Source of the DNA: Cenococcum geophilum
Taxonomy: Eukaryota
Assembly: GCA_050273025.1 (NCBI GenBank)
Contig: CP158635.1
Coordinates: 19,964,001-20,028,000 of the forward strand
DNA length: 64,000 bases
Direction: 5' to 3'
Part shown: piece by piece, positions 385 to 53,045 of the stretch
Numbering within the stretch: position 1 is the first letter of the stretch
Layout of the letters: every line of letters starts with the position of its first letter
Notes under the pieces: model-generated
Database searches by the model: none
Told to the model about the DNA's origin: nothing
The model's input: the letters and a program-made list of their open reading frames with translations, nothing else
Program-made: the position numbers and the translations under genes

Positions 385-890
385 ATGTCGGACAACGGTT
401 CTCCAAACAACATGCACAAGCCCGAGGATACTGCTCAGCAGTCGGAGCATCTCAATATCAAAGTCACGGATAATAACAACGAGGTGTTCTTCAAGATCAA
501 ACGTACTACCCAGCTGAAGAAGTTGATGGATGCGTTTTGCGATAGGCAGGGCAAATCCCCACAGAGTGTGCGCTTTCTCTTCGACGGACAGCGTGTGCAG
601 CCTACAGATAATCCAGATTCGGTGAGTCAATCATCCCGCTGTTTCAGGTTCACGGTTCGGCATTTCTATTCTATGGCCGAGGGCTAGCACCGTGTCATGC
701 CTACTGGTGAGGGGCAGTATTCAGCAAATACTTGCTATATAGCTGGCTTCCAAAGACTTCGTAGCCTTGCCTGTTGCCTGCTCGTGATTATTTTATGCCA
801 GTCTGTAATTTACTAATACATTTTATACAGCTTGACATGCAGGATGGCGACACGCTTGAAGTCCACCAAGAGCAAATTGGCGGGTGTTGA
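385..890 (+). CDS. SMT3: SUMO (small ubiquitin-like modifier); exons 385-621 and 831-890
   Basis: HLNIKVTDNNNEVFFKIKRTTQLKKLMDAFCDRQGK...RFLFDG; GTGAGT..TACTAA..CAG intron; exon 2 reads LDMQDGDTLEVHQEQIGG-C-stop (di-glycine motif). Confidence 0.97.
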
Positions 891-1834: not shown

Positions 1835-2493
1835 CTAATCCTCCCAAACTGCCTTCTTCCGCCTCTCCGCCTCCTCCGCCTCCCTCCTCTCGCGCTCCCT
1901 CCGCTCCTCCCGCGCCCTCTTCTCCCTCTCCCGCGTCACGCGATCGAACTCCCTCTCCTCCTCGCTCCGCTTCGGCGCCCGCACCCCCAGCGCCCCCGCG
2001 ATCAGCCGCCCGGCCACCGCCGTCGTCTTCTCAGGCCGCCGCGCCGGGCTCGCCGTCCCGCTGTTATTCCCGCTGCCGCTCCGCGAGCCCCGCCCACTGT
2101 CGCCCGCGCCACTACCGTACGCCGCGGCGGCGGCGGGGGCAAGGGCGGGGAAGTCGAACGGGGCCCCGACGGGCGAGGCGGGAGTGGGCGGTGGCGGGTG
2201 AGGCGTCTCGTAGCTCGAGGCCGTCGCGATGGGCGGCGTGGTGTCGGAGGTCGAGGTCGTGGAGGCTGTCAGCGTGTCTTCGGTCTCGGCTTCGTCGCTG
2301 GACGAGACGTTGTCGTCCCAGGAGTCGGCGATGGGCTTCTTTTTGGGCTTGGGTGCTGTGCTGAGTTTCAGGTGGGAGAGGGCGGATGTGACTTCTGCGG
2401 GGGGGTGGGTAGGTTAGTAGGTGGTTGCTGGGAGCTGGGAAGGGGGGGCATGGTGGGGCACGTACCGGACTCGGAGGGGGTGACGTGAGACAT
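1835..2493 (-). CDS. Hypothetical fungal protein with one intron (~2397-2465) and a C-terminal charged coiled coil
   Basis: Spliced ORF MSHVTPSESEVTSALSHLKLS...IADSWDD...RRPEKTTAVAGRLIAGALGVRAPKR...KKAVWED*; GTACGT/CTAAC/CAG splice signals. Confidence 0.8.
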
Positions 2494-3755
2494 TGTGGTG
2501 GCTGGTCTATTGGGTGGTGGGGATGTGGGTGTGAACGAGCAGATGGTACAGTAAGCGGACAAATGTTATATACAGGGCGCGCGGTGACGAAAGGACGATC
2601 TCGGTGGTGAGAGACTAAAGAGCAGGAGACTTTGGGCACAGAATGTGGGGGGGTCCAAGCTTGGACTGGGCTTGTGAAAATCAAACCGGACGAGAAGGCA
2701 CATGCCAGACGACGGGCTTGCACGTCCGATATCTAGTACCTTCTCTTGATGGCGTTGCAAACCAACTTGTATTGAAAAGCTAAGACAAGCTCGGGTAAAC
2801 GGCGTACAGGTGTCTGCGCATAGGGGAGCACGAGGACGAGGGAAAGGCAGGTAGGCAGTTTCCTATCCGTCGAACAGGACAACTCATATGCGTTCTTAGG
2901 TCTCCGCGAACATGATTTAGTCTTAATTTAAATACACTGATCCTCAGCATTTAGGACTATGACTGTTAACGACCACGTTGCTGCGCTGCGGCCGCGACCT
3001 ACAATAATGAGAAACCTCATCTAGCACTTAATTAGGCATCGTAGTCTCGGCGCCGCCAAGCTCTTACCGATAACTTCGTCTCTACCTATATTGAGATATT
3101 GCATATAGGTAAGCTCTTCAGATACTACTGCAATCGGAGACTCGGTGCAGCGCCTCTTAAAGACAGCTAAAACGGTGTACACGTTTTACAAAAATTAATA
3201 AACTACTCAAACGGGCACACAGCATTAATCTCACGTCTCCATACTCGACTATTCCGCTTAGTTATACTCTATGTTTGTGTGTAGGTCCAGGGGGATGTAG
3301 GCTTTAGTTCTGTCTCTTAATTCCCGTCGACTAGCAGAATACATCCTTTTCGCGCATCTAGTGGATAACTTGCAGGAGGTTTTTCGGTAACAAGCAGCCG
3401 TTTAATGGCTTTAGCCCCGCTTCGTCCAAATCAACTCAAACTGTACAGCCGGATTTGAGATGTTCTGGCGACAGAGTGGCTGACGCTCTCTCCCGAGGTC
3501 GGAGCAAGCCAATTGCGTCGTCAGGTGCGGAATTTGTTTATTCCCTATTCCCGACGCTTTTACAAAAGCAACCTAACTCTCATTCTGCGCTATATACTTT
3601 CTCACTCCTCCAATAGAGCCCGAGTCTACTCTACCAATTGCTTTGCTCCTGCTCATGCCCATGTAGCGTGCTACTTACTAGCTTCCTGCCACTTTACAAG
3701 GACCTGTTGTTGATCCTTCCATCACACAGCGAGCATTACGTCTCATGTGTCAATC

Positions 3756-6098
3756 ATGCTTTCTCATCGTGCTTTCATCAAAAGAACTTCTTTTAAGCAA
3801 AGTTGTTTATATTTCAATAATCGTTCTTCTCATCTATTCTTCTCGTCCTCTGCAAAGTATGGCGCATACGCCGACACCATTCCCAATCTGAAGATCGGAA
3901 AGTACACACGGGTGATATATCAAGGCTTCACGGGTAAACAAGCTACGGCCAATGCCAAACAATCAATTGAGTATGGAACTCAAATAGTAGGAGGTGTAAA
4001 ACCTGGTACGACCGGGGAACATCTCGGTTTGCCTGTTTTACCGAGTGTGAAAGCAGCCAAAGAGCAATTAAACCCGGATGCTACCGCAATCTTTGTTGCT
4101 GCTCGGTATGCTGCTTCTGCAATCGAGGAGGCCATTGAGGCGGAAATTCCGTTGATTGTAGCCGTTGCGGAGCATGTTCCATTACATGATGTTATGAGAG
4201 TAAGCCATGTGTCCTAGCTAGGACAATTGGGGCAAGTCTACTGAACGGCTTTAGATCCATTCCATCCTCAGCACACAATCCAAGTCTCGCCTAGTAGGTG
4301 CTAATGCTCCTGGAATTATCTCGGCCATTGGAAGGTGTAGAATAGGCTTCCAACCATTGCCAACATTCTCTCCTGGTCATGTTGGCATTGTGGCTAAATC
4401 AGGAACACTGAGCTATGAAACCGTTGCCTCTCTCACAAGAGCTGGACTCGGTCAAAGTTTATGCATAGGGGTGGGTGGTGATGTTATTGCTGGAACCAAT
4501 TTTGTGGATGCACTCACAGTCTTCGAGACGGACGAAGATACTGAAACTATCATTTTGGTCGGTGAACTAGGCGGGACTGCGGAAGAGGAGGCTGCCGAAT
4601 GGATAAAGGTGTATAAGAAACGCGTGCCAAATCCAAAGTAAGCGTATCCTCTTCTAGGTCATTCTCATCAAACTAAACAGCAATCTAGACCCATTGCGGC
4701 TCTTGTAGCAGGTTTCCAAGCCGTCCCGGGCAGAGTGATGGGACATGCTGGAGCATGGACCGGCATCGGCGAAGGTACCTCTGAAAGCAAATACAAAGCC
4801 CTGGAGAGCGCTGGAGTAACTATGGTCGACCACCCAGCCAAGTTCGGCAACGTAATGAAAGGTCTACTATTAGGTAGTGGAAGAAGCGTGTATGAAATTG
4901 TATGTCCTGCCCCCTTACTTAAGAAATGGTTCTAAACAATCTGTAGCAAAAATCTGTAGTAAACCAACGCCGATCCTTCCACACTTCTCGCTCACGGCCT
5001 CATGTTCGACTAGCCCCAAGTCGCTCAGCTAGTATTCCTCACCGCAGCCTCCACCTCACTACAACTCAAGCTACAGACCTCCTCAAAAACTATGGCATAA
5101 CTATCTCGCCAGACCCTTCACCCACGCCCTCATCCTCCCACTTCGTCGGCATAACAGTTGACCGCTCATCCCGCAGCCCTTGCATCGTTGCCTCTCCCAC
5201 CACCTCCCCGACCCAGCTCGCTTACCGCGCACGTCGTTTCCCTTTCGATTACCGGCTGGGTCCCTCGCAAGCCACAATCCTCGCGGCGCTCGAGTACCTC
5301 CAGCTCGACGCCGCCCCTTCCAGTGCCAAAGCCTCCGCCGCCTCCCTAATCAACTCGCTCTGGTCGCTCTACCAATCCAAAGAAGCACTAACCCTGACCG
5401 TACACCTCTCCCTGTCCACCCAGCAAGACTCACTAATCCTCCACAACCCCTCCCTCACCTTCGACGACGCCGCCTTCAAATCCGCCTCCCGCCACCCGGA
5501 CATCCATTCCCTGCGCGACCTCTCCGCCATCCCCCCAGCCGAGCTCGAAGCCGAAGCCCACGGCATCGTCTACATCCCGCTCCCCTCCCCCAGCGCCGCC
5601 GCCGCGCAACCTCTTCTAATCGGCACCCTCGTCAACGGCGCCGGCCTCGCCATGAACACGTGCGACGTCCTCGCCGCGCGCCTGCACGCCTCCCCCGCCG
5701 CCAACTTCCTCGACACGGGCGGCAAGGCCACCGCGGCCACCATCGCCGCGTCGTTCAAGCTGGTCCTGGCGGATCCGCGCGTCGGGGTCGTGTTCGTCAA
5801 TATCTTTGGCGGGCTGACGCTGTGCGATATGATTGCGCGCGGTGTCGTCCTTGCGTTCAAGGAGGTTGGGGTCGACAAGCCGGTTGTGGTTAGGTTGAGG
5901 GGCACGAATGAGGAGGAGGGTGCGAGGATTTTGCAGGGGGCGGGGTTGCCGATTGGGGTGTTTGATGGGTTTGAGGAGGCAGTGGGGGAGCTGGGGAGGT
6001 TGGTTGAGGGGCAGGACGGGTGGGGGAGGGGGAGGTTGAGAGGAGGGGTGGATGAAAGTGATGTAGGTATAGGGATAGGGATAGGGAGGGGAGATTAG
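3756..6098 (+). CDS. Fused succinyl-CoA ligase alpha-like + truncated beta-like protein (~729 aa); exons 3756-4199, 4255-4637, 4689-4899, 4947-6098
   Basis: Alpha motifs QGFTGKQ, KSGTLSYE, GVGGD, GELGG, MGHAGA (phospho-His); beta motifs VDRSSR, FDDAA, GTLVNGAGLAM, NFLDTGG, NIFGG, RLRGTN. Three canonical introns keep one frame (2190 nt); N-terminus resembles a mitochondrial presequence. Confidence 0.9.
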
Positions 6099-6902
6099 GG
6101 TGAGGCGGAGGTAGAAGTAGAGGTAGAAGCGTTGAAGATAGATTTGGGTGGGAGTTGGTTATGCTAGTTATGCTAGCTATGCTAAATATAGACAGATCCT
6201 TTTACTCGCGTTTCAATTCCTAGTATACAGTTCATGCCGGTCCGCTCCCTGGACGCGCGGAAGAGGTAAAAAACAAAGACGAAGACGAAGAAAAGAAAGG
6301 GCTCTGCCGCCCGCACCCGCGTTTTTCCGCTGGGGAAGAAATGTTAGAACCGCCTGGCAAGCAGGCGCTCATCCCTCATGAAGAGAAAACACGAGTCAAA
6401 ACAGAACCCGCCTCCCACCCCTTCCTGGCTCATCCTATAAAACATAACGCCATGACCACTGCAACCCGTAGACCCGCTCCTAACGCCGCCCGCTTACGAT
6501 AAAAAAATGCAAGACTAGAAATGAGCGGAAAAAATAACTGCGTAGCTAAAGAAACCGAGAACTTCAGAATCAAAATATATAATGTGTGGCTGTCGGACGC
6601 TGGGTGGTTGGGAAAAAAGAAAAAAGAAAAAAGCGGTGTGCTGAAGAAATGAATGCTCGCTTCAAACGCTTCAGTGTTGCCGGAACAAGAAACAGAAGAA
6701 CGGAATGGAATACAATGGCATATCGAGTACTGTAACATGCTCACATACCCAGCTGTCGAGATGGTAGAACAAGCCCCTTCTTTAAAAAGCTTAAACCAAC
6801 CCCCAGGCCGTAACGCTGCCGTACCCAAGCAAACTATCTAATCAATGAGAAAGGATGATGTAGAGGGAAGAAGGGACAGCCTTAGAAAAGAGATTCTCTC
6901 CC

Positions 6903-45564: not shown

Positions 45565-48500
45565 TTATTTCTATTTATTGCCCAATTTAATCCCTTTTTA
45601 GGTCTATATACTTATACCTTTCTATATAGGAAAAGGCCCTATAAGAAAAAAAAACCTAAGTATTTCCTTTTAGCTAGTCCTATATGTTTTACCTTTACTA
45701 AACTAATATATCTTTATATCTTTAGGTCTACCTTATATACTATTTTATCTAAGTATATTAGAAGATCTAGAGGGGGTAATAGAAGTATTTAGTAATTCGC
45801 TAACGTACTACCTATAGCTAGATAGGGGTATTTAGTCTCTAAGGGCTAAAAGAGGGCGTATCCTTTAGTGTCCTTCTATTAGATCTTATATAACATTTAG
45901 AACTACTAAAGGACTCCTTAGCCTATAGCTATTTTACTACTACTTATAGGCCTCTACTTATAGAGAGTATTTAGGTAATATTATTTATATCTATATTAGT
46001 AAATAGCTAGTCCCTTACTAAGCGATAGCTATAGAAAAGTAGTATATAGTATACTAACTAAATAGGCTATCTATAAGTATATTAAGGTATAGTATTTAGA
46101 ATATAGATACCTACTAGCTATATATTTAGGCTTAAGACCTTTATCTAAAGTAGGAAGACGGCTATAAATTCTACCTTTATTAGTCCTTTATATAGAAGAA
46201 GTATTATTATTAACTATAAGGTATTTTATATAGCTATATATTGTATTTTTACCACCTCCTTCTATTATCGCTTTTATTTAAGGTCTACCTATCTTATAAT
46301 AAGTATAGTAGATCTCTATCTATACTAATGGCCTTTTATTCTCTATCGCTATAATAGCGCTCTACTAGTGCGGCGGTAGGTCTTTACCTAATAAGCTAGT
46401 AGTTTCTATATTTCCTTCTCTCTCTCTACCTATAGGTAGAGGGCTTCCTAGCTAGTATACTTAGGTATATCGCCTCTTTAAGAGGCCCTTACTTCTTATA
46501 TACATCTTATTCCTTATATATATTTTAGTATTTAGTATATATTTTCTTCTACTAGGTAGCCTTATACTCTAAATATTCTCTATATAGTAGTTATATTAAT
46601 ATATAAGTCTAGTAGTAAAACCGCTAATTCGCGTTCTAATATAGCGCGTAGTATTCTTCTATAAGTCCCTATAGTTCTATATAGGTACTAGTTTTATAGC
46701 CTAGCTAGTAGCGTTAGGGAGCTTTTTACTAATGCCTTATTATTTAGTCTTAGGCCTTAGATCTAGGAGCTATATAGTATTATTAGCCCTACTACTACCA
46801 TATATAGTAGATATATGCATCTAAAAGAGGGTCTCTATATTAATATAGTAATCTATAATACTGCCGAAAATGCTATTACTCCCCTATAGGTCGTCTATAT
46901 AATATATACATTTTAGTCTAGTAAAGACTTTACTAAAACCCCTAAGACCTTAAGGGTAGCTTCTAGTTTTACTTTATAGCCCTAAATATTTACTATTAAG
47001 GCTAGGTTACTACTTGTCTTCCTTTTCCTTATAAAGTAAATAAGATAGTGTTTATCTAGTGTAAATTTAATATAGTATTGTTTTACCTATATAATGTACT
47101 TATTATACGCCTATTCTAGCCTAGTATAGTTTTTTACTACTATATTTCCCTATATAATTAGGTTTATATTAGCCCTCTCTTTAATTACCTTAAGTATTTA
47201 AGTGGTATAGCCAGCTTACTTAAGATATACTATATTTATACTAAGCTTAGACCTAAGCGGAGCCTTTAATAATATATTATATAAGAGATTTTTATAGATC
47301 CTAAGAAATAAAGGCCTACTAAACTAGATAATTAAGTTTATCTATACCTTTCTAATAGGGCATATTATAAAAATTATAATCGAGAGCTATAAAAGTGAAT
47401 TAATACTAATACTTATAGGTATTCTTTAGAGATTACCTCTATTACTAATCCTATTCCCCTTCCTTTATATTTAAACTACTAGAGATATATAATAATAACT
47501 AAGATATAATAGCTCTAAGATTTATAAATAAGAGGGTTAATCGTTTCTTCTTACGCCTATTTATATCTATAGTAGTAGCTCCTATACCTTTACTTTTTCT
47601 TATATACGTTCTATAACTATCTTTTCTAAAAGCTTTCTTAGGGTATTTTCTAGGGTAATTAGTTAGTAGCTTCTTAAAAAGAAGTAGCCTTTTTTCTTTA
47701 CCTTTTATAAGACGACTATAGTTATTACTTTAAAGTATTTAGGTAGTTCGCCTCCCTAGAGGTAGGTAGTTATAGTATTAGTAAGTAGTATTACTACCGC
47801 TTTTACTATGGCTTTAAATTATTTTATATAGAATTTTGTTTAGCCCTAGCGCTTTACTAATAGGGAGCTTTTATATAGTATTTTTTTTATTTCTATACTA
47901 ATACTATATAGCTTATTTCTAGAGGTAAGGGGTAAGTTTAGCTACTAATATCTAGATCTACTTAGCCCGCGCCTAGGAAGAACCTCTCTTTTAATATATT
48001 TATTTTTTCCTTATTATTATTTATATACTAGTCCTATTCTATCCGGTAGAGTATAGGTAGGTAGAGATCCTCTAGTATCTTCTTAGCGGCTTACCTACTC
48101 TACTTTAATATACGCTAGAGTTCTTTATTATATAGTTTAATAGGGTTTAAGGTAATTTCTTTTAGGAATTAACGCTAGTTATTTTTACCCTCTTTCTATA
48201 TTATCTTCTTAAGCCTATATTTTAGGACTTTATAGCTCTATTAGTAGTAGGCTTCGCCTATTACACTATACTATCGCCTTACTTTTTTTAGCGCCCGTGA
48301 GTAGCTAGGCTGCCTTTAGCAACTACTTATAGTAAGCATATTTACTAGGCTAAGCCTTTAAGTAGTATTCTTCTAAGTAGTTACTTATAATCCTTTAAAT
48401 ATCCTCTAGTAATACCTGGTATAGCTGCTAGCCTATTAGTAACTTCCTAGGTATATCTTTCCTAGTTAAGTTTATTAGTAACGTATCTCTAGTAGGTTTA

Positions 48501-50300
48501 TTATATTAGTGCGGTAAAGTTAAGCGTTATTTATATAGATATATAGTCTATAGTAATTAATTATATATTTTCTAGTCCGTAAAATACTAGTCGGTTTATA
48601 AGTATTTCTTATATAAATATAAGGTCGATTATACTCTCTTAGGTTTCTCTTTTCTAGGTAGATTTGTTAGTTAGAGTAGTTAAGGCAAGGCCCTGCGTTT
48701 CTAGCTTATTTAGTAAGTAAATCGCCTATACCTTAACTATAGCCTACTATCCTCCCTATAATATATAGTATATATTAAAGTCCCTTAAGACTATTACCTT
48801 ACCTTCCGCTATATTAATAGCTTATTAAAGTAGTCACTATATAGTAATTTAGGGCTTATTATCCCTTAGATTGTAAATATCAGTTATACTAGTTTAGCCC
48901 CTATTAGTAGCTACTTATAGTTTGCCTATATTAGGCCTAATAGTATAGTAGCTCTATACTTATATATTAATACGTTAACTAACTAGGAAGTATATATAGG
49001 TAGTATCCTTTTAGTTAGTATATTTTACGGGTTTACTTTTTATATACTAGTTCCTATATAGCTATTATCTAGTACTCTTCTAGGTCTAGGCTATTAAATA
49101 AAGGACGTATTACTCTATAGTTTAAGTATCTGTAGTTATATTATACTATTATTAGCCCTTTTATAGTATTAGTTAGTCTAGTAACTTATAGGTATTTTCT
49201 ATTTACGTCTAGCCGGGCTTTATACTAGAGGTTATTTAAACTATTTCTTTACATACTACCGCCGCTATAAGAGTATATATATTAGATCCCGCCATACTTA
49301 TAATAAGTTTATAAGTACTTAATATCTTTTTAGCCGTATAGTAACGTAAGGGGGGATACGTTACAGCCGATTATATCTCTTAGATTAGTAGGTTAATTAT
49401 TAAAGTACTATATATTTTAACCCTTTAGAACCCTAGTAATACCTCTATATATATTATACGTACTTTATAAAGCTATATAAACTTATATAACTTTAGATAT
49501 AGTAATTCCTAGGACTAGCTTTATAATAACCTTTATAATTTTTTAGATAAGTTATAAATTTATAGCGCCTTGCCTACTTTCTACTTATATATTAAGGGGT
49601 ACCCTAATTACTTTAACTAGGTAGTTTTAGTAGAGGATTTTATACTTATAGATATCTCCCTAGGTAATAGCCTAGTCCTTTACCTATTAGTTAGGGAGTA
49701 TAACCTCTATACTACTACTATATAGGACCCTTACTACTACTGCCTTTAGTATATACACTCTAATTAATATAAGGATCTATTTTAGCTCTACTTCTATAAC
49801 TTCTAGTATTTAGACCCTAACTATAGACTTAATAGGTGCTACGCTAGGTATACGCTAAGGGGGCACTAGTTAGGCGCTGGCCGTAATATTAGCCTATAAG
49901 GGCTTTATTATATACGTTATTAGTATTCCCTATAATTTTATCGCATCTTTAATACGCCTATTCTCTATAGCGTCCTAATTCCTATTATATCTTATCTATA
50001 GTTTCTAGGCGATTCGCTTTGCCTATTAAGCTATCTGCGCTACCCCTATATATAGGTAATTATCTTCTCCCTTCTCTAGATCTTCTTTAATGTCTTTTAG
50101 AATATTTATAAGTTTCTACTATTTCTAATTATTATCCTTTAGTTATTATAGTTAGGTCGTCTCCTATTAAGTATATTATAATGTTATGTTTTTCTATACA
50201 GCATCCTACTTTTAAGTTTATTACAACCCTTCTACATCGCGTAGGCTTTCTAGCTGTACTATATATATTAGCTCTAGGGTATATTATACCCTAAATTTAA
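45565..50300 (-). mobile_element. Near full-length RIP-degraded Tad1-like LINE (gag-endonuclease-RT-zinc knuckle)
   Basis: De-RIPped motifs: endonuclease GDFN.HH..WGG (~48760-48790), RT F..DK..LIHF and LKVLGV (~46940-47070); same 3' UTR as the other copies. 5' boundary approximate. Confidence 0.8.
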
Positions 50301-51429
50301 TTAGGAGTGGTTATTTCTTTATTAAATAAGTAGTAGGCGCGTTCTACTACTATAGCAGCTTTATCTATAGATATATAAGCGTCTTATATACTTTATGTAT
50401 ATATTTATATAAGCTACTCTTCTATACTTTAACCCTAATTTCTCTTTAATAATTATTACTAATGCCTTAGACTTTATATATACTATAATACTTATACCCT
50501 ATTATATATTATAGCTAGAGGTTTAATAATACTAAAGTTTAATATAATACCTATAATAAAGAGCTTTATACTATAGTATAAAGCTTTAATGTATAGAAAT
50601 ACTATTTTTAATATACTCTATATATAATATATACTTAATAATTATAAAGAGCTAATTAGTATACTAGGCCTATTATATAAAGAAATTAACTAAGTTTAAT
50701 TATAAGATTAAATATAACCTTAGTAAGTTAAACTTAGTAAATATCCTATTATATTACTTAGACTATATAAAAGAGTTTTAAAAAGGCAGTAAAAGGATAA
50801 TCCTTAATACTATACTACTAATAATATAGTAAAAGTTATAGGTAATAAGCCTTATAGGATGCTTATCTAGTACTACTACATTAACTATACTATAAAAAGT
50901 ATATAAGTGACCTTTATAACTATAGTACTAATAAGCTAAGGTACTCTATTATAATAACTTTATAAGTAGTATCTATATTATATATTAACCTACTAGTATA
51001 GACTTTATATAGAGTTATATACTATAGTAAGAAGTAATAGTAATAGCTTTTACTAAAAATAACTTTTAAAAAAGAACCTTCTAAACTATATTTAAATAGT
51101 ATAGGATAAGGTTACTAATTCTTATACTATTTATAAGAAGTTATAAAGGGGAAAATGCCTATTAGTATAAAAGATTATATTTCTTAATTAAAATAATCTT
51201 ATATAATAAAAGAGTAAAGTTTTAATACAAATTTTTTTTGGCTTTATTAAAAGATCTTTTAAAGGAATTATAATAATCCTATAATAGACCATTATAGCTT
51301 TAATTATACTTATAAGGTAATTATATAAAAGTATATTTAAGATATAGTTTTTTAAAAACCTTTATAGAGATTAAATTTAATATAATACCTACTAATGTTT
51401 TAAAACTTATTATTATATACTTATAGTAT

Positions 51430-53045
51430 ACTAGAAAACCTTTTAGAAAAGATAGTTATAGAACGTATATAAGAGGCGGCGGAAGTATAGGAGCTACTAT
51501 TATAGATATAAATAGGTACAAGAAAGAAAAGATTAACCCTCTTAGCCCTCTCCCTAATTACCTCTAGTATTTAAGCGGTATAGTAAGATTACCTAGGATA
51601 TATTATATCTATGCTAAGCCTAGACCTAAGCAAAGCATTTAATAATATACTATATAAGAGACTTATATAAATCTTAAGAAATAAGGGCCTACTAAACTAG
51701 ATAATTAAGTTTATCTAAGTTTTCCTAATAGGGCGTACTATAAAATTATAATTAAGAGCTATAAAAGCGAATTATACTAGGTATCCTATAGCGATTAACC
51801 CTATTACTAACCCTATTTCTTTTCTTTATATCTAAACTACTAGAGATATATAATAATAGCTAGGATATAATAGCTCTAGGATTTATAGATAATATAAACC
51901 TAATTATATAGGGAAATACTCTAGTAGAAAACTATACTAGGCTAAACTAGGCGTATAATAGGTATATTATATAGGCAAAACAATACGGCGCTAAATTTGC
52001 ATTAGATAAATACTAGCTTATATACTTTATAAGGAAAAAGAGGGTAAGTAGCGATCTAGCTTTAATAGTAAATATCTAGAGCTATAAAGTAAAACTAAAA
52101 GCTACTCTTAAGGTCCTAAGGGTCTAGGTAAACTCTAGGTTAGACTAGAATGAGAATATTATATAGGCAACTTATAGGGGAGTAGTAGTATTTTTAATAG
52201 TATTATAAATTGTTATATTAATATAGGGACCTTCTTTTAAATATACACGCCTACTATATATAGTAGTAGTAAGGCTAATAATGCTATACGGCTTCTAGAT
52301 CTAGGGCCTAGGACTAGGCGGTAAGGTGCTAGTAAAAAGCTCCCTAGCGCCGCTAACTAAGCTATAAAACTAGTACTTATATAGGACTATAGAGGCCTAT
52401 AGAAGAACACTACGCGCTATACTAGAAAGCGAAGTAGTAATTCTATTACTAAACTTATATATTAACTTAACTACTATATAAAGAGCAGTTATAGTATAAA
52501 GCTACCTAGTAGAAGAAAATATATATTAAATATTAAAATGTATATAAGGAACGAGATATATATAAGGAGCGAGGGTCCCTTAAAGGAGCAATACGCCTAA
52601 GTATACTAGCTAGGAAGCCCTCTACCTATAAGCGGTAAAGAGAAAAAAGGAAATATAGGAACTATTAACTTACCAGGCGGAGACCTAGCGCTATACTAGT
52701 AGAGCGCTATAACGGCAATAGAGGATAGGAGGCTATTAATATAGATAGAGATCTACTACACCAATTATAAGATAGGTAGATCTTAAATAAAAGCGACAAT
52801 AGAAGGAGGTAGTGAAAAAATAAGACGCAGCTATATAGAGCACCCTATAGTTAATATAAACTATCCCCTAATATAAAGGACTAATAAAGGTAGAATCTAT
52901 AGCCGCCTTTCTACTACGGATAAAGGTCCTAGGTCTAAATGTATAGCTAGCAAAGCATCTCTATTTTAAATACCTTACCTTAATATATATACGGGTGGCC
53001 TATTTAGTTAGTACGCCATATTCTACTATTCTATAGTTACCGCTT
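51430..53045 (+). mobile_element. RIP-degraded LINE RT/C-terminal fragment(s)
   Basis: GFIDNINL (~GFVDDTNL RT motif, ~51880), KFALDKY*LIYFIR, LKVLRV*VNSRLD*; homologous to the inverted copy at 46000-47600. Confidence 0.8.

Follow-up and report, generated by a model that had tools for sequence, protein, structure and literature searches.

The Cenococcum geophilum gene at 3756-6098 (+) of the window (the whole 64,000-nucleotide stretch of DNA analysed here) is a spliced, expressed fungal gene of four exons, whose 729-aa product is a fusion of a succinyl-CoA-synthetase (SCS) alpha half followed by a beta half that has lost the lid of its ATP-grasp nucleotide site. The CoA fold, the two power helices, His295, Glu139 and Glu252, which make up site I of the enzyme, are all intact and conserved; site II, the nucleotide site, is destroyed. 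The sequence-only reading of this DNA had proposed just such a division, with the nucleotide site lost and the acyl-CoA/phosphate/phospho-His site kept. Sequence and RNA data, the homologues and a pair of AlphaFold models now support it. We tentatively read the protein as a nucleotide-independent, phosphate-cycling CoA transferase of mitochondria, a predicted activity that we favor with slightly more doubt than confidence. The features of the gene, with conservation counted over the 109 family representatives described below, are:

3756..4199, + strand: exon 1, presequence-like N-terminus and CoA-binding domain 1 (aa 1-148; PF02629 at aa 50-140, E 6e-21; RNA splice joint 4199-4255).
3756..3863, + strand: putative mitochondrial-presequence-like N-terminal stretch (about aa 1-36; disordered in the model of homologue P0002; family composition R 14.5%, S+T 24.8%, D+E 4.2%).
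4170..4172, + strand: Glu139, aligned with human SCS alpha Glu105 (alignment of homologue P0005; 108/109 representatives).
4200..4254, + strand: intron 1, GT-AG, 55 nt (gene model and RNA).
4255..4637, + strand: exon 2, alpha domain 2 with power helix 1 (aa 149-276; PF00549 E 1.8e-16; RNA joints).
4297..4314, + strand: aa 163-168, the canonical GPNCPG with Pro-to-Ala and Cys-to-Ala changes (position 166 variable across the family).
4564..4566, + strand: Glu252, presumed phospho-His partner at site I and, by alignment, the equivalent of E. coli alpha Glu208 (109/109; role as described in PMC10342173).
4638..4688, + strand: intron 2, GT-AG, 51 nt (gene model and RNA).
4689..4899, + strand: exon 3, phospho-His loop and end of the alpha half (aa 276-346; gene model and RNA).
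4744..4746, + strand: His295, catalytic phospho-histidine, equivalent of E. coli alpha His246 (108/109 representatives, one gap).
4900..4946, + strand: intron 3, GT-AG, 47 nt (gene model and RNA).
4947..6098, + strand: exon 4, linker and lidless beta half (aa 347-729 and stop; a single 383-aa open frame, continuous in spliced contigs).
4947..5048, + strand: linker like an internal presequence, in which the processing peptidase may cut at Arg355 and Arg379 (aa 347-380; P0002 pLDDT <50 at 354-379; Arg355 108/109, His358 102/109, Arg379 106/109).
5049..5099, + strand: beta N-terminal strand and helix (aa 381-397; matches mature SCS beta from residue 1, model residue 35 being residue 1 of 2fp4_B and 1scu_B).
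5100..5138, + strand: 13-residue stub replacing the ATP-grasp lid, 84 residues gone (sequence, RNA, structure match).
5139..5579, + strand: ATP-grasp remnant, domain 4, folded (aa 411-557; mean conservation 0.49 over aa 390-557).
5193-5216 (aa 429-436) and 5394-5408 (aa 496-500), + strand: replaced nucleotide/metal motifs inside the remnant (alignment with canonical beta).
5628..5954, + strand: beta domain 5 (CoA-ligase), power helix 2 and substrate loops (aa 574-682; PF00549 E 3.4e-21; invariant columns; family-typical Thr603, Lys606, Leu636 and Thr637).

The deletion is apparent from comparison with the canonical SCS beta encoded in the same genome. In the fusion, the beta N-terminal helix ends with residues 391-397 (5079-5099), and only 13 residues separate these from the strand bearing Asp418-Arg419. 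Measured to the Asp-Arg strand, the interval is 19 aa, versus 103 aa in the canonical protein; the K.Q and GGRGK motifs are among the 84 absent residues. At the places of the canonical GG.DIE and EINPL motifs the fusion has unrelated residues, with Thr497 and His499 at the site-II Glu and metal-ligand positions of EINPL, and the alignment thus bears out the earlier statement that the beta GG.EIE and EINPL motifs have been replaced. Exon 4 gave no match to PF08442 (ATP-grasp_2) at E<=0.1, and the sole PF08442 match in the genome is the canonical SCS beta, on contig C2. PF00549 has five matches in the genome, namely canonical beta, canonical alpha, an ATP-citrate lyase subunit and the fusion's own two halves. 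A search of the genome for a separate lid gene or stand-alone ATP-grasp partner, which a very short or divergent lid gene could escape, found only the canonical beta with PF08442 and nothing with PF13549, and a genome search using the lid-bearing sister protein P0308 returned known loci only.

To establish what the mRNA contains, we mapped four RNA runs on 3400-6500, as contigs from three runs and as stranded raw reads from a related strain (930 reads). The contigs from all three contig runs show exactly three introns, and cover 4947-6500 free of gaps and differing letters. Among the raw reads of the related strain, the three splice joints are backed by 11, 16 and 48 reads, depth is about 124 over 5064-5167, and none of the insertions listed falls where the lid is missing; within coding sequence the list has a single insertion, of one codon, at 5041. 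Gapless contigs together with the lack of an insertion in the raw reads indicate an mRNA without the lid. A hidden exon or an assembly error is ruled out by these RNA data and by homologues with the same deletion, in agreement with the earlier observation that only some 13 residues stand in the lid's place, with no room for a hidden exon.

The close full-length homologue P0002 is modeled by AlphaFold with a mean pLDDT of 88.4 and disorder only at residues 4-28 and 354-379, and its alpha half falls on mammalian SCS alpha with Z 37-39 and rmsd 1.4-1.8. The window's own exon-4 protein (pLDDT 87.8), superposed on pig beta 2fp4_B, spans residues 1-393 with 302 positions aligned (Z 27.5, rmsd 2.3); this superposition on SCS, a check that had been suggested from the sequence, gives an end-to-end match to pig beta minus the lid, about 90 pig residues being left unmatched. 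Against isolated ATP-grasp folds, 128-141 of 204-239 residues align. In these models, the domain-4 core persists as a scaffold and the lid is gone. The beta N-terminal domain is described as the nucleotide site of SCS (PMC2440562), and subdomain 3, the lid, as required for binding ATP and passing on its phosphate (PMC11494057). Sequence and models together support the conclusion that the fusion's own beta half would be unable to form a normal nucleotide site.

The deletion is not peculiar to this genome. A search for longer relatives yielded 550 proteins among 8000 scored candidates, and the 120 matches listed are fused proteins, mainly from Dothideomycetes, with PF08442 in none and the lid in 0/120; among these matches the spacer is 18-20 aa in 115/121 aligned rows and never >25. 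Beyond Dothideomycetes the family ranges over Eurotiomycetes, Sordariomycetes, Leotiomycetes, Lecanoromycetes, Pezizomycetes and Mycena, with AN1193 (A. nidulans) and AFUA_1G10830 (A. fumigatus) as Aspergillus members, and its proteins carry database labels such as SCS alpha subunit, SCS-like, CoA-ligase and hypothetical protein. For conservation, 276 full-length alpha-beta proteins were reduced to 109 representatives under 80% identity, a diverse, ascomycete-type set. Two motifs and Lys606 served as filters for membership of the set, six of 281 proteins, all from Fusarium, being dropped for having no Lys606; the invariance of Lys606, of the domain-5 Asn-Gly motif and of Ser197/Thr199 in it is therefore partly by construction, and the same positions are invariant in a hand-picked alignment (A1) made without that filter. 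His295 (108/109), Glu252 (109/109) and Glu139 (108/109) did not serve as filters.

Domains 1, 2 and 5 show mean conservation values of 0.83, 0.77 and 0.76 across the 109 representatives, and the ATP-grasp remnant a value of 0.49. The lid is absent in 109/109, the distance from Arg379 to Arg419 being <=69 aa in all and 36-45 in 105, versus 124 in canonical beta; the site-II glutamate position is Glu in 33/109, and Asn is not among the five commonest residues at its metal-motif position. The deletion is thus shared by the orthologues, both in the 120/120 among the matches listed and in the 109 representatives. Of the proposal that they are under purifying selection, what we can affirm is conservation at the protein level. 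We also looked among these proteins for orthologues retaining the lid alongside a relaxed copy here, the pattern that would have spoken against it, and encountered none. Lineage-specific decay is rejected on the same grounds, the deletion being common to 120/120 among the matches listed and site I being conserved.

There is nevertheless some residual ATP-grasp signal to account for. Certain relatives still match PF08442 (A. fumigatus, E 7e-5; Fusarium, E 2e-9), and the sister-clade proteins P0308 and P0286 have a lid, as one would expect if the remnant bound nucleotide weakly and acted as a slow ordinary ligase, or if the copy were a decaying pseudogene. We regard this explanation as highly improbable: the lid, the phosphate-binding loop and the metal ligands are all absent or variable, and the gene is intact, spliced and expressed, with its deletion shared throughout the matches listed. 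The pseudogene reading in particular is refuted by the intact expressed gene and the homologues that share the deletion.

All alpha and domain-5 motifs previously named as retained are present. The change of GPNCPG to GANAPG noted earlier is real in this protein, but its Cys-to-Ala part is not family-wide, position 166 being Ala in 60, Ser in 30 and Cys in 19 of 109; we therefore rejected Cys166-to-Ala as a mark of the family. With Cys166 replaced in 90/109 and the nucleotide site lost, one could envisage a regulator or sensor, in which beta' or the whole protein would bind acyl-CoA or canonical alpha and dampen the main SCS with little turnover. The full site-I catalytic set is kept in many fungal classes, however, and a binder would need less, making such a role very unlikely in our view. 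Further family-typical changes lie near site I (His140, Phe180, Asn583, Thr603, Lys606, Leu636 and Thr637), and these may shift substrate preference.

The SCS reaction is described as proceeding in three steps (PMC2440562). With site I intact and conserved and site II destroyed, we infer that steps 1 and 2 would be kept and the handover of phosphate to NDP lost, and the intact canonical SCS alpha and beta that the genome also keeps mean that Krebs-cycle duty is covered. In the mechanism that we propose, an old ascomycete SCS paralogue would be made as a single alpha-beta precursor and enter mitochondria, where cleavage of the linker would probably release the subunits alpha' and beta'. Of the SCS reaction, only steps 1 and 2 would run: acyl-CoA and phosphate would give acyl-phosphate and CoA, and then phospho-His and the free acid. 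With no NDP to accept the phosphate, the phospho-enzyme would reverse the same steps on a second acid, the net result being that an acyl-CoA, perhaps succinyl-CoA, hands its CoA to a different carboxylate while phosphate acts as the catalyst; given the altered substrate loops, at least one partner acid is perhaps not succinate. The neighboring genes gave no clue to substrate or pathway. No CoA-transferase Pfam domain matched the gene's exons or the full-length homologue P0002, and the protein may act like a classical CoA transferase while belonging to none of those families.

Several considerations weigh against this reading. Conservation of site I equally fits the hydrolase, phosphodonor and in-trans readings taken up below, which counts against singling out CoA transfer. 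The sequence-only reading had itself put forward a phosphate-dependent CoA transferase, an acyl-CoA-cleaving enzyme or a need for canonical beta in trans; its suggestion of a non-succinate acid is no more than hinted at by the altered loops. One E. coli beta Glu197 mutant reportedly failed to be phosphorylated from either side, suggesting that a damaged site II can put site I out of action. Ordinary CoA transferases are already present in filamentous fungi (PMC7324963), which makes the need for a lidless one unclear. Our literature search found no documented nucleotide-free exchange reaction of SCS, and the exchange step is deduced from the reversibility of the mechanism.

The same half-reaction might instead have a different exit. 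The phospho-His could be hydrolysed, making the protein a CoA-recycling acyl-CoA hydrolase, or passed to an acceptor such as a kinase, or else acyl- or carbamoyl-phosphate could drive CoA ligation. All of these need the same conserved site I, and SCS is reported to bind mitochondrial NDPK (PMC10342173). In P0284 and P0285, which are lidless, Taphrinomycotina-like and of beta-alpha order, an adenylate kinase complete with its lid domain sits at the C-terminus, which could be a real fusion hinting at phosphoryl transfer or a gene-model read-through. The main family is without a kinase fusion, however, no adenylate-kinase tail was found in the window, and a pure hydrolase would waste the thioester and have no need for such elaborate machinery. 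We consider an alternative exit of this type rather unlikely, though worth keeping in mind.

A system relevant both to such exits and to the CoA-transferase reading is the oxamic transcarbamylase AllFGH of E. coli. Its AllF (FdrA) subunit is very distant from the fusion, 3dmy and the alpha half matching weakly in sequence (E 0.00028), and AllF is not known to contain an SCS-beta remnant. As described in PMC11326118, AllF is a PF00549-annotated subunit in an NTP-free, phosphate-dependent group transfer, which sets a precedent for nucleotide-independent chemistry by a protein with this annotation, and AllFGH interconverts acyl-amide plus phosphate and carbamoyl phosphate; unlike the fusion, AllF requires AllG and AllH, and the reaction reported there is without CoA.

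The linker between the two halves bears on how the protein might be assembled. Residues 347-380 contain the disordered stretch of the P0002 model and have a presequence-like composition of R 14.2%, S+T 21.6% and D+E 3.9%. An Arg-x-hydrophobic motif (Arg-2/-3 type), picked after inspection, occurs in 102/109 linkers, whereas 200 shuffles gave 9 on average and never more than 19; the four mature regions have it in 0, 1, 16 and 2 of 109. The same motif is found in 7/8 fungal-clade beta-alpha fusions versus 0/5 other beta-alpha fusions (13/18 parsed). Arg379 aligns with the Arg preceding the mature start of canonical beta. Mitochondrial processing peptidase (MPP) cuts internal presequence-like linkers, as in Arg5,6 (PMC8734313), and the tandem precursors treated there (Arg5,6; Atp25; Etp1; Rsm22-Cox11) likewise comprise two mitochondrial proteins and an internal presequence-like linker, although cleavage of our fusion is only predicted; the main text of that paper names no SCS protein (0 matches for succinyl, succinate or Lsc). 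By these sequence features, the linker is probably cleaved to give alpha' and beta' subunits. In run X19, raw-read depth is 102-147 over 4960-5583 versus 11-17 over most alpha exons, with no start cluster listed at window 4752-5583; this step may reflect coverage bias or a shorter, beta-half-only transcript.

A presequence-like linker, a feature that the sequence-only reading had missed, makes subunit mixing in trans physically possible. Cut alpha' could pair with canonical beta, which the genome encodes, as an NTP-dependent ligase of altered specificity, or alpha'beta' could borrow the site II of canonical beta within a larger complex; the processing-type motif in nearly all linkers and the close fit of the alpha half to mammalian alpha agree with this. 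Against it, conservation in domain 5 of beta' matches that of the alpha domains (0.76), and this domain has fixed changes of its own, both of which suggest that alpha' finds the rest of site I in beta' itself. The cleavage, too, is presumed from a motif chosen post hoc. On balance, we judge an arrangement in trans to be unlikely.

Judged by its relationships, the gene belongs to a family of paralogues that is old and widespread and in which the lid has been lost by degrees, a point that the sequence-only reading had overlooked. In P0308 (Xanthoria, beta-alpha order) the lid is whole but its motifs are worn, and the sister protein P0286 still has EINPL. Part of the lid survives in Fusarium proteins (alpha-beta order), whereas nothing of it is left in Taphrina-like proteins (beta-alpha order) or in the main family. 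P0308, P0286, P0287 and P0346 appear as a sister paralogue group with whole or partial worn lids and both fusion orders; the search with P0308 found no paralogue of this type in the C. geophilum genome. A phmmer scan of 291 two-half proteins and the window protein with the canonical lid (88 aa) recovered P0308, P0286 and P0259, and one Fusarium protein weakly (E 0.002), with no other alpha-beta protein below E 0.9, a weak test given that some lid-bearing fusions reach only E 0.01-0.1. In quick trees of the alpha and beta halves (SH-aLRT support, no bootstrap), the fusion family and its sisters split from the genome's canonical SCS with SH-aLRT 93-95 (alpha) and 98 (beta), and branching among them is left open. 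Since the fusion orders differ, the lid was likely lost more than once. Taken as a whole, an account in which lid loss, perhaps repeated and with intermediates still alive, made an ascomycete SCS into a nucleotide-free CoA transferase that uses phospho-His, with phosphate as catalyst, and is supplied as a mitochondrial polyprotein that undergoes processing, is possible, but we hold it with somewhat more doubt than the predicted activity itself.

Some members of the collection stand apart. The Mycena (basidiomycete) proteins P0097, P0121 and P0123 fall beside Lasiodiplodia within the dothideomycete branch of the quick trees, a placement that suggests horizontal transfer or contamination. Among Aspergillus entries (P0400, P0401 and P0457), some gene models are about 890-900 aa long and an adenylylsulfate kinase is grouped with the A. 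fumigatus cluster, a pattern suggestive of models running on into a neighboring gene; no adenylylsulfate kinase match was found within the window.

Mitochondrial SCS (pig GTP-specific 2fp4/1euc, human SUCLG1-SUCLA2 6g4q/9swj and E. coli SucCD 1scu) shares with the fusion domains 1, 2 and 5, the domain-4 core, and the phospho-His with its Glu, at about 47% identity and rmsd 1.4-1.8 for alpha and Z 25-28 for beta. Of the features that define an SCS, the fusion has the CoA-binding Rossmann domain 1 (PF02629 E 6e-21; structure match), the phospho-His loop with the domain-2 site-I Glu (His295, Glu252), and domain 5 with the second power helix (PF00549 E 3e-21), the last with altered substrate loops. 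It differs from SCS in having one gene for both halves, in deletion of the lid (domain 3), in loss of the site-II motifs and in its changed substrate loops, and its clade is separate from the genome's own SCS. Two defining features thus fail within an SCS-like build, and the protein should not be filed as a working SCS. ATP-citrate lyase (of which C. geophilum encodes its own), citryl-CoA synthetase and other NDP-forming acyl-CoA synthetases draw on a common domain toolkit, often fused or shuffled, but unlike the fusion they rely on a lid-bearing ATP-grasp (PMC11494057).

The family is real and conserved and, it appears, undescribed. In the literature as covered by titles and abstract openings, with few subscription papers among them, we found no description of it and no mention of AN1193, AFUA_1G10830, Afu1g10830, PADG_02910 or PABG_00493, although supplementary omics tables may list such genes. 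Genome-based metabolic models may give these proteins the wrong reaction, and their retention across many fungal classes, including Aspergillus, points to a mitochondrial acyl-CoA reaction still to be assigned. The family also offers a natural experiment in which the two active sites of SCS have been separated, with living intermediates; if the CoA-transferase reading is true, the mechanism of CoA transfer would be unlike that of known transferase families.

The neighbors of the fusion gene in the window are SUMO, kinase-like, phosphoesterase, adaptin, Nuf2 and JmjC genes. Directly upstream lie a SUMO-like gene at 385-890 (+), recognized from its translation, and a small gene at 1835-2490 (-) with no Pfam match; the A. 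nidulans SUMO gene is presumably AN1191, two loci away from AN1193, in which case gene order around the fusion would be conserved. Within exon 4, five reads skip 47 nt at window 5399-5447, with GT..AA ends, a minor, non-canonical and frame-breaking event, and there is slight antisense depth at 5270-5690. Opposite-strand reads at window 6104-6415 (-) stop near 6160, not far from the fusion gene's 3' end. Farther along, window 46001-52000 is an AT-rich block (GC 0.24-0.30), possibly of degenerate repeats.
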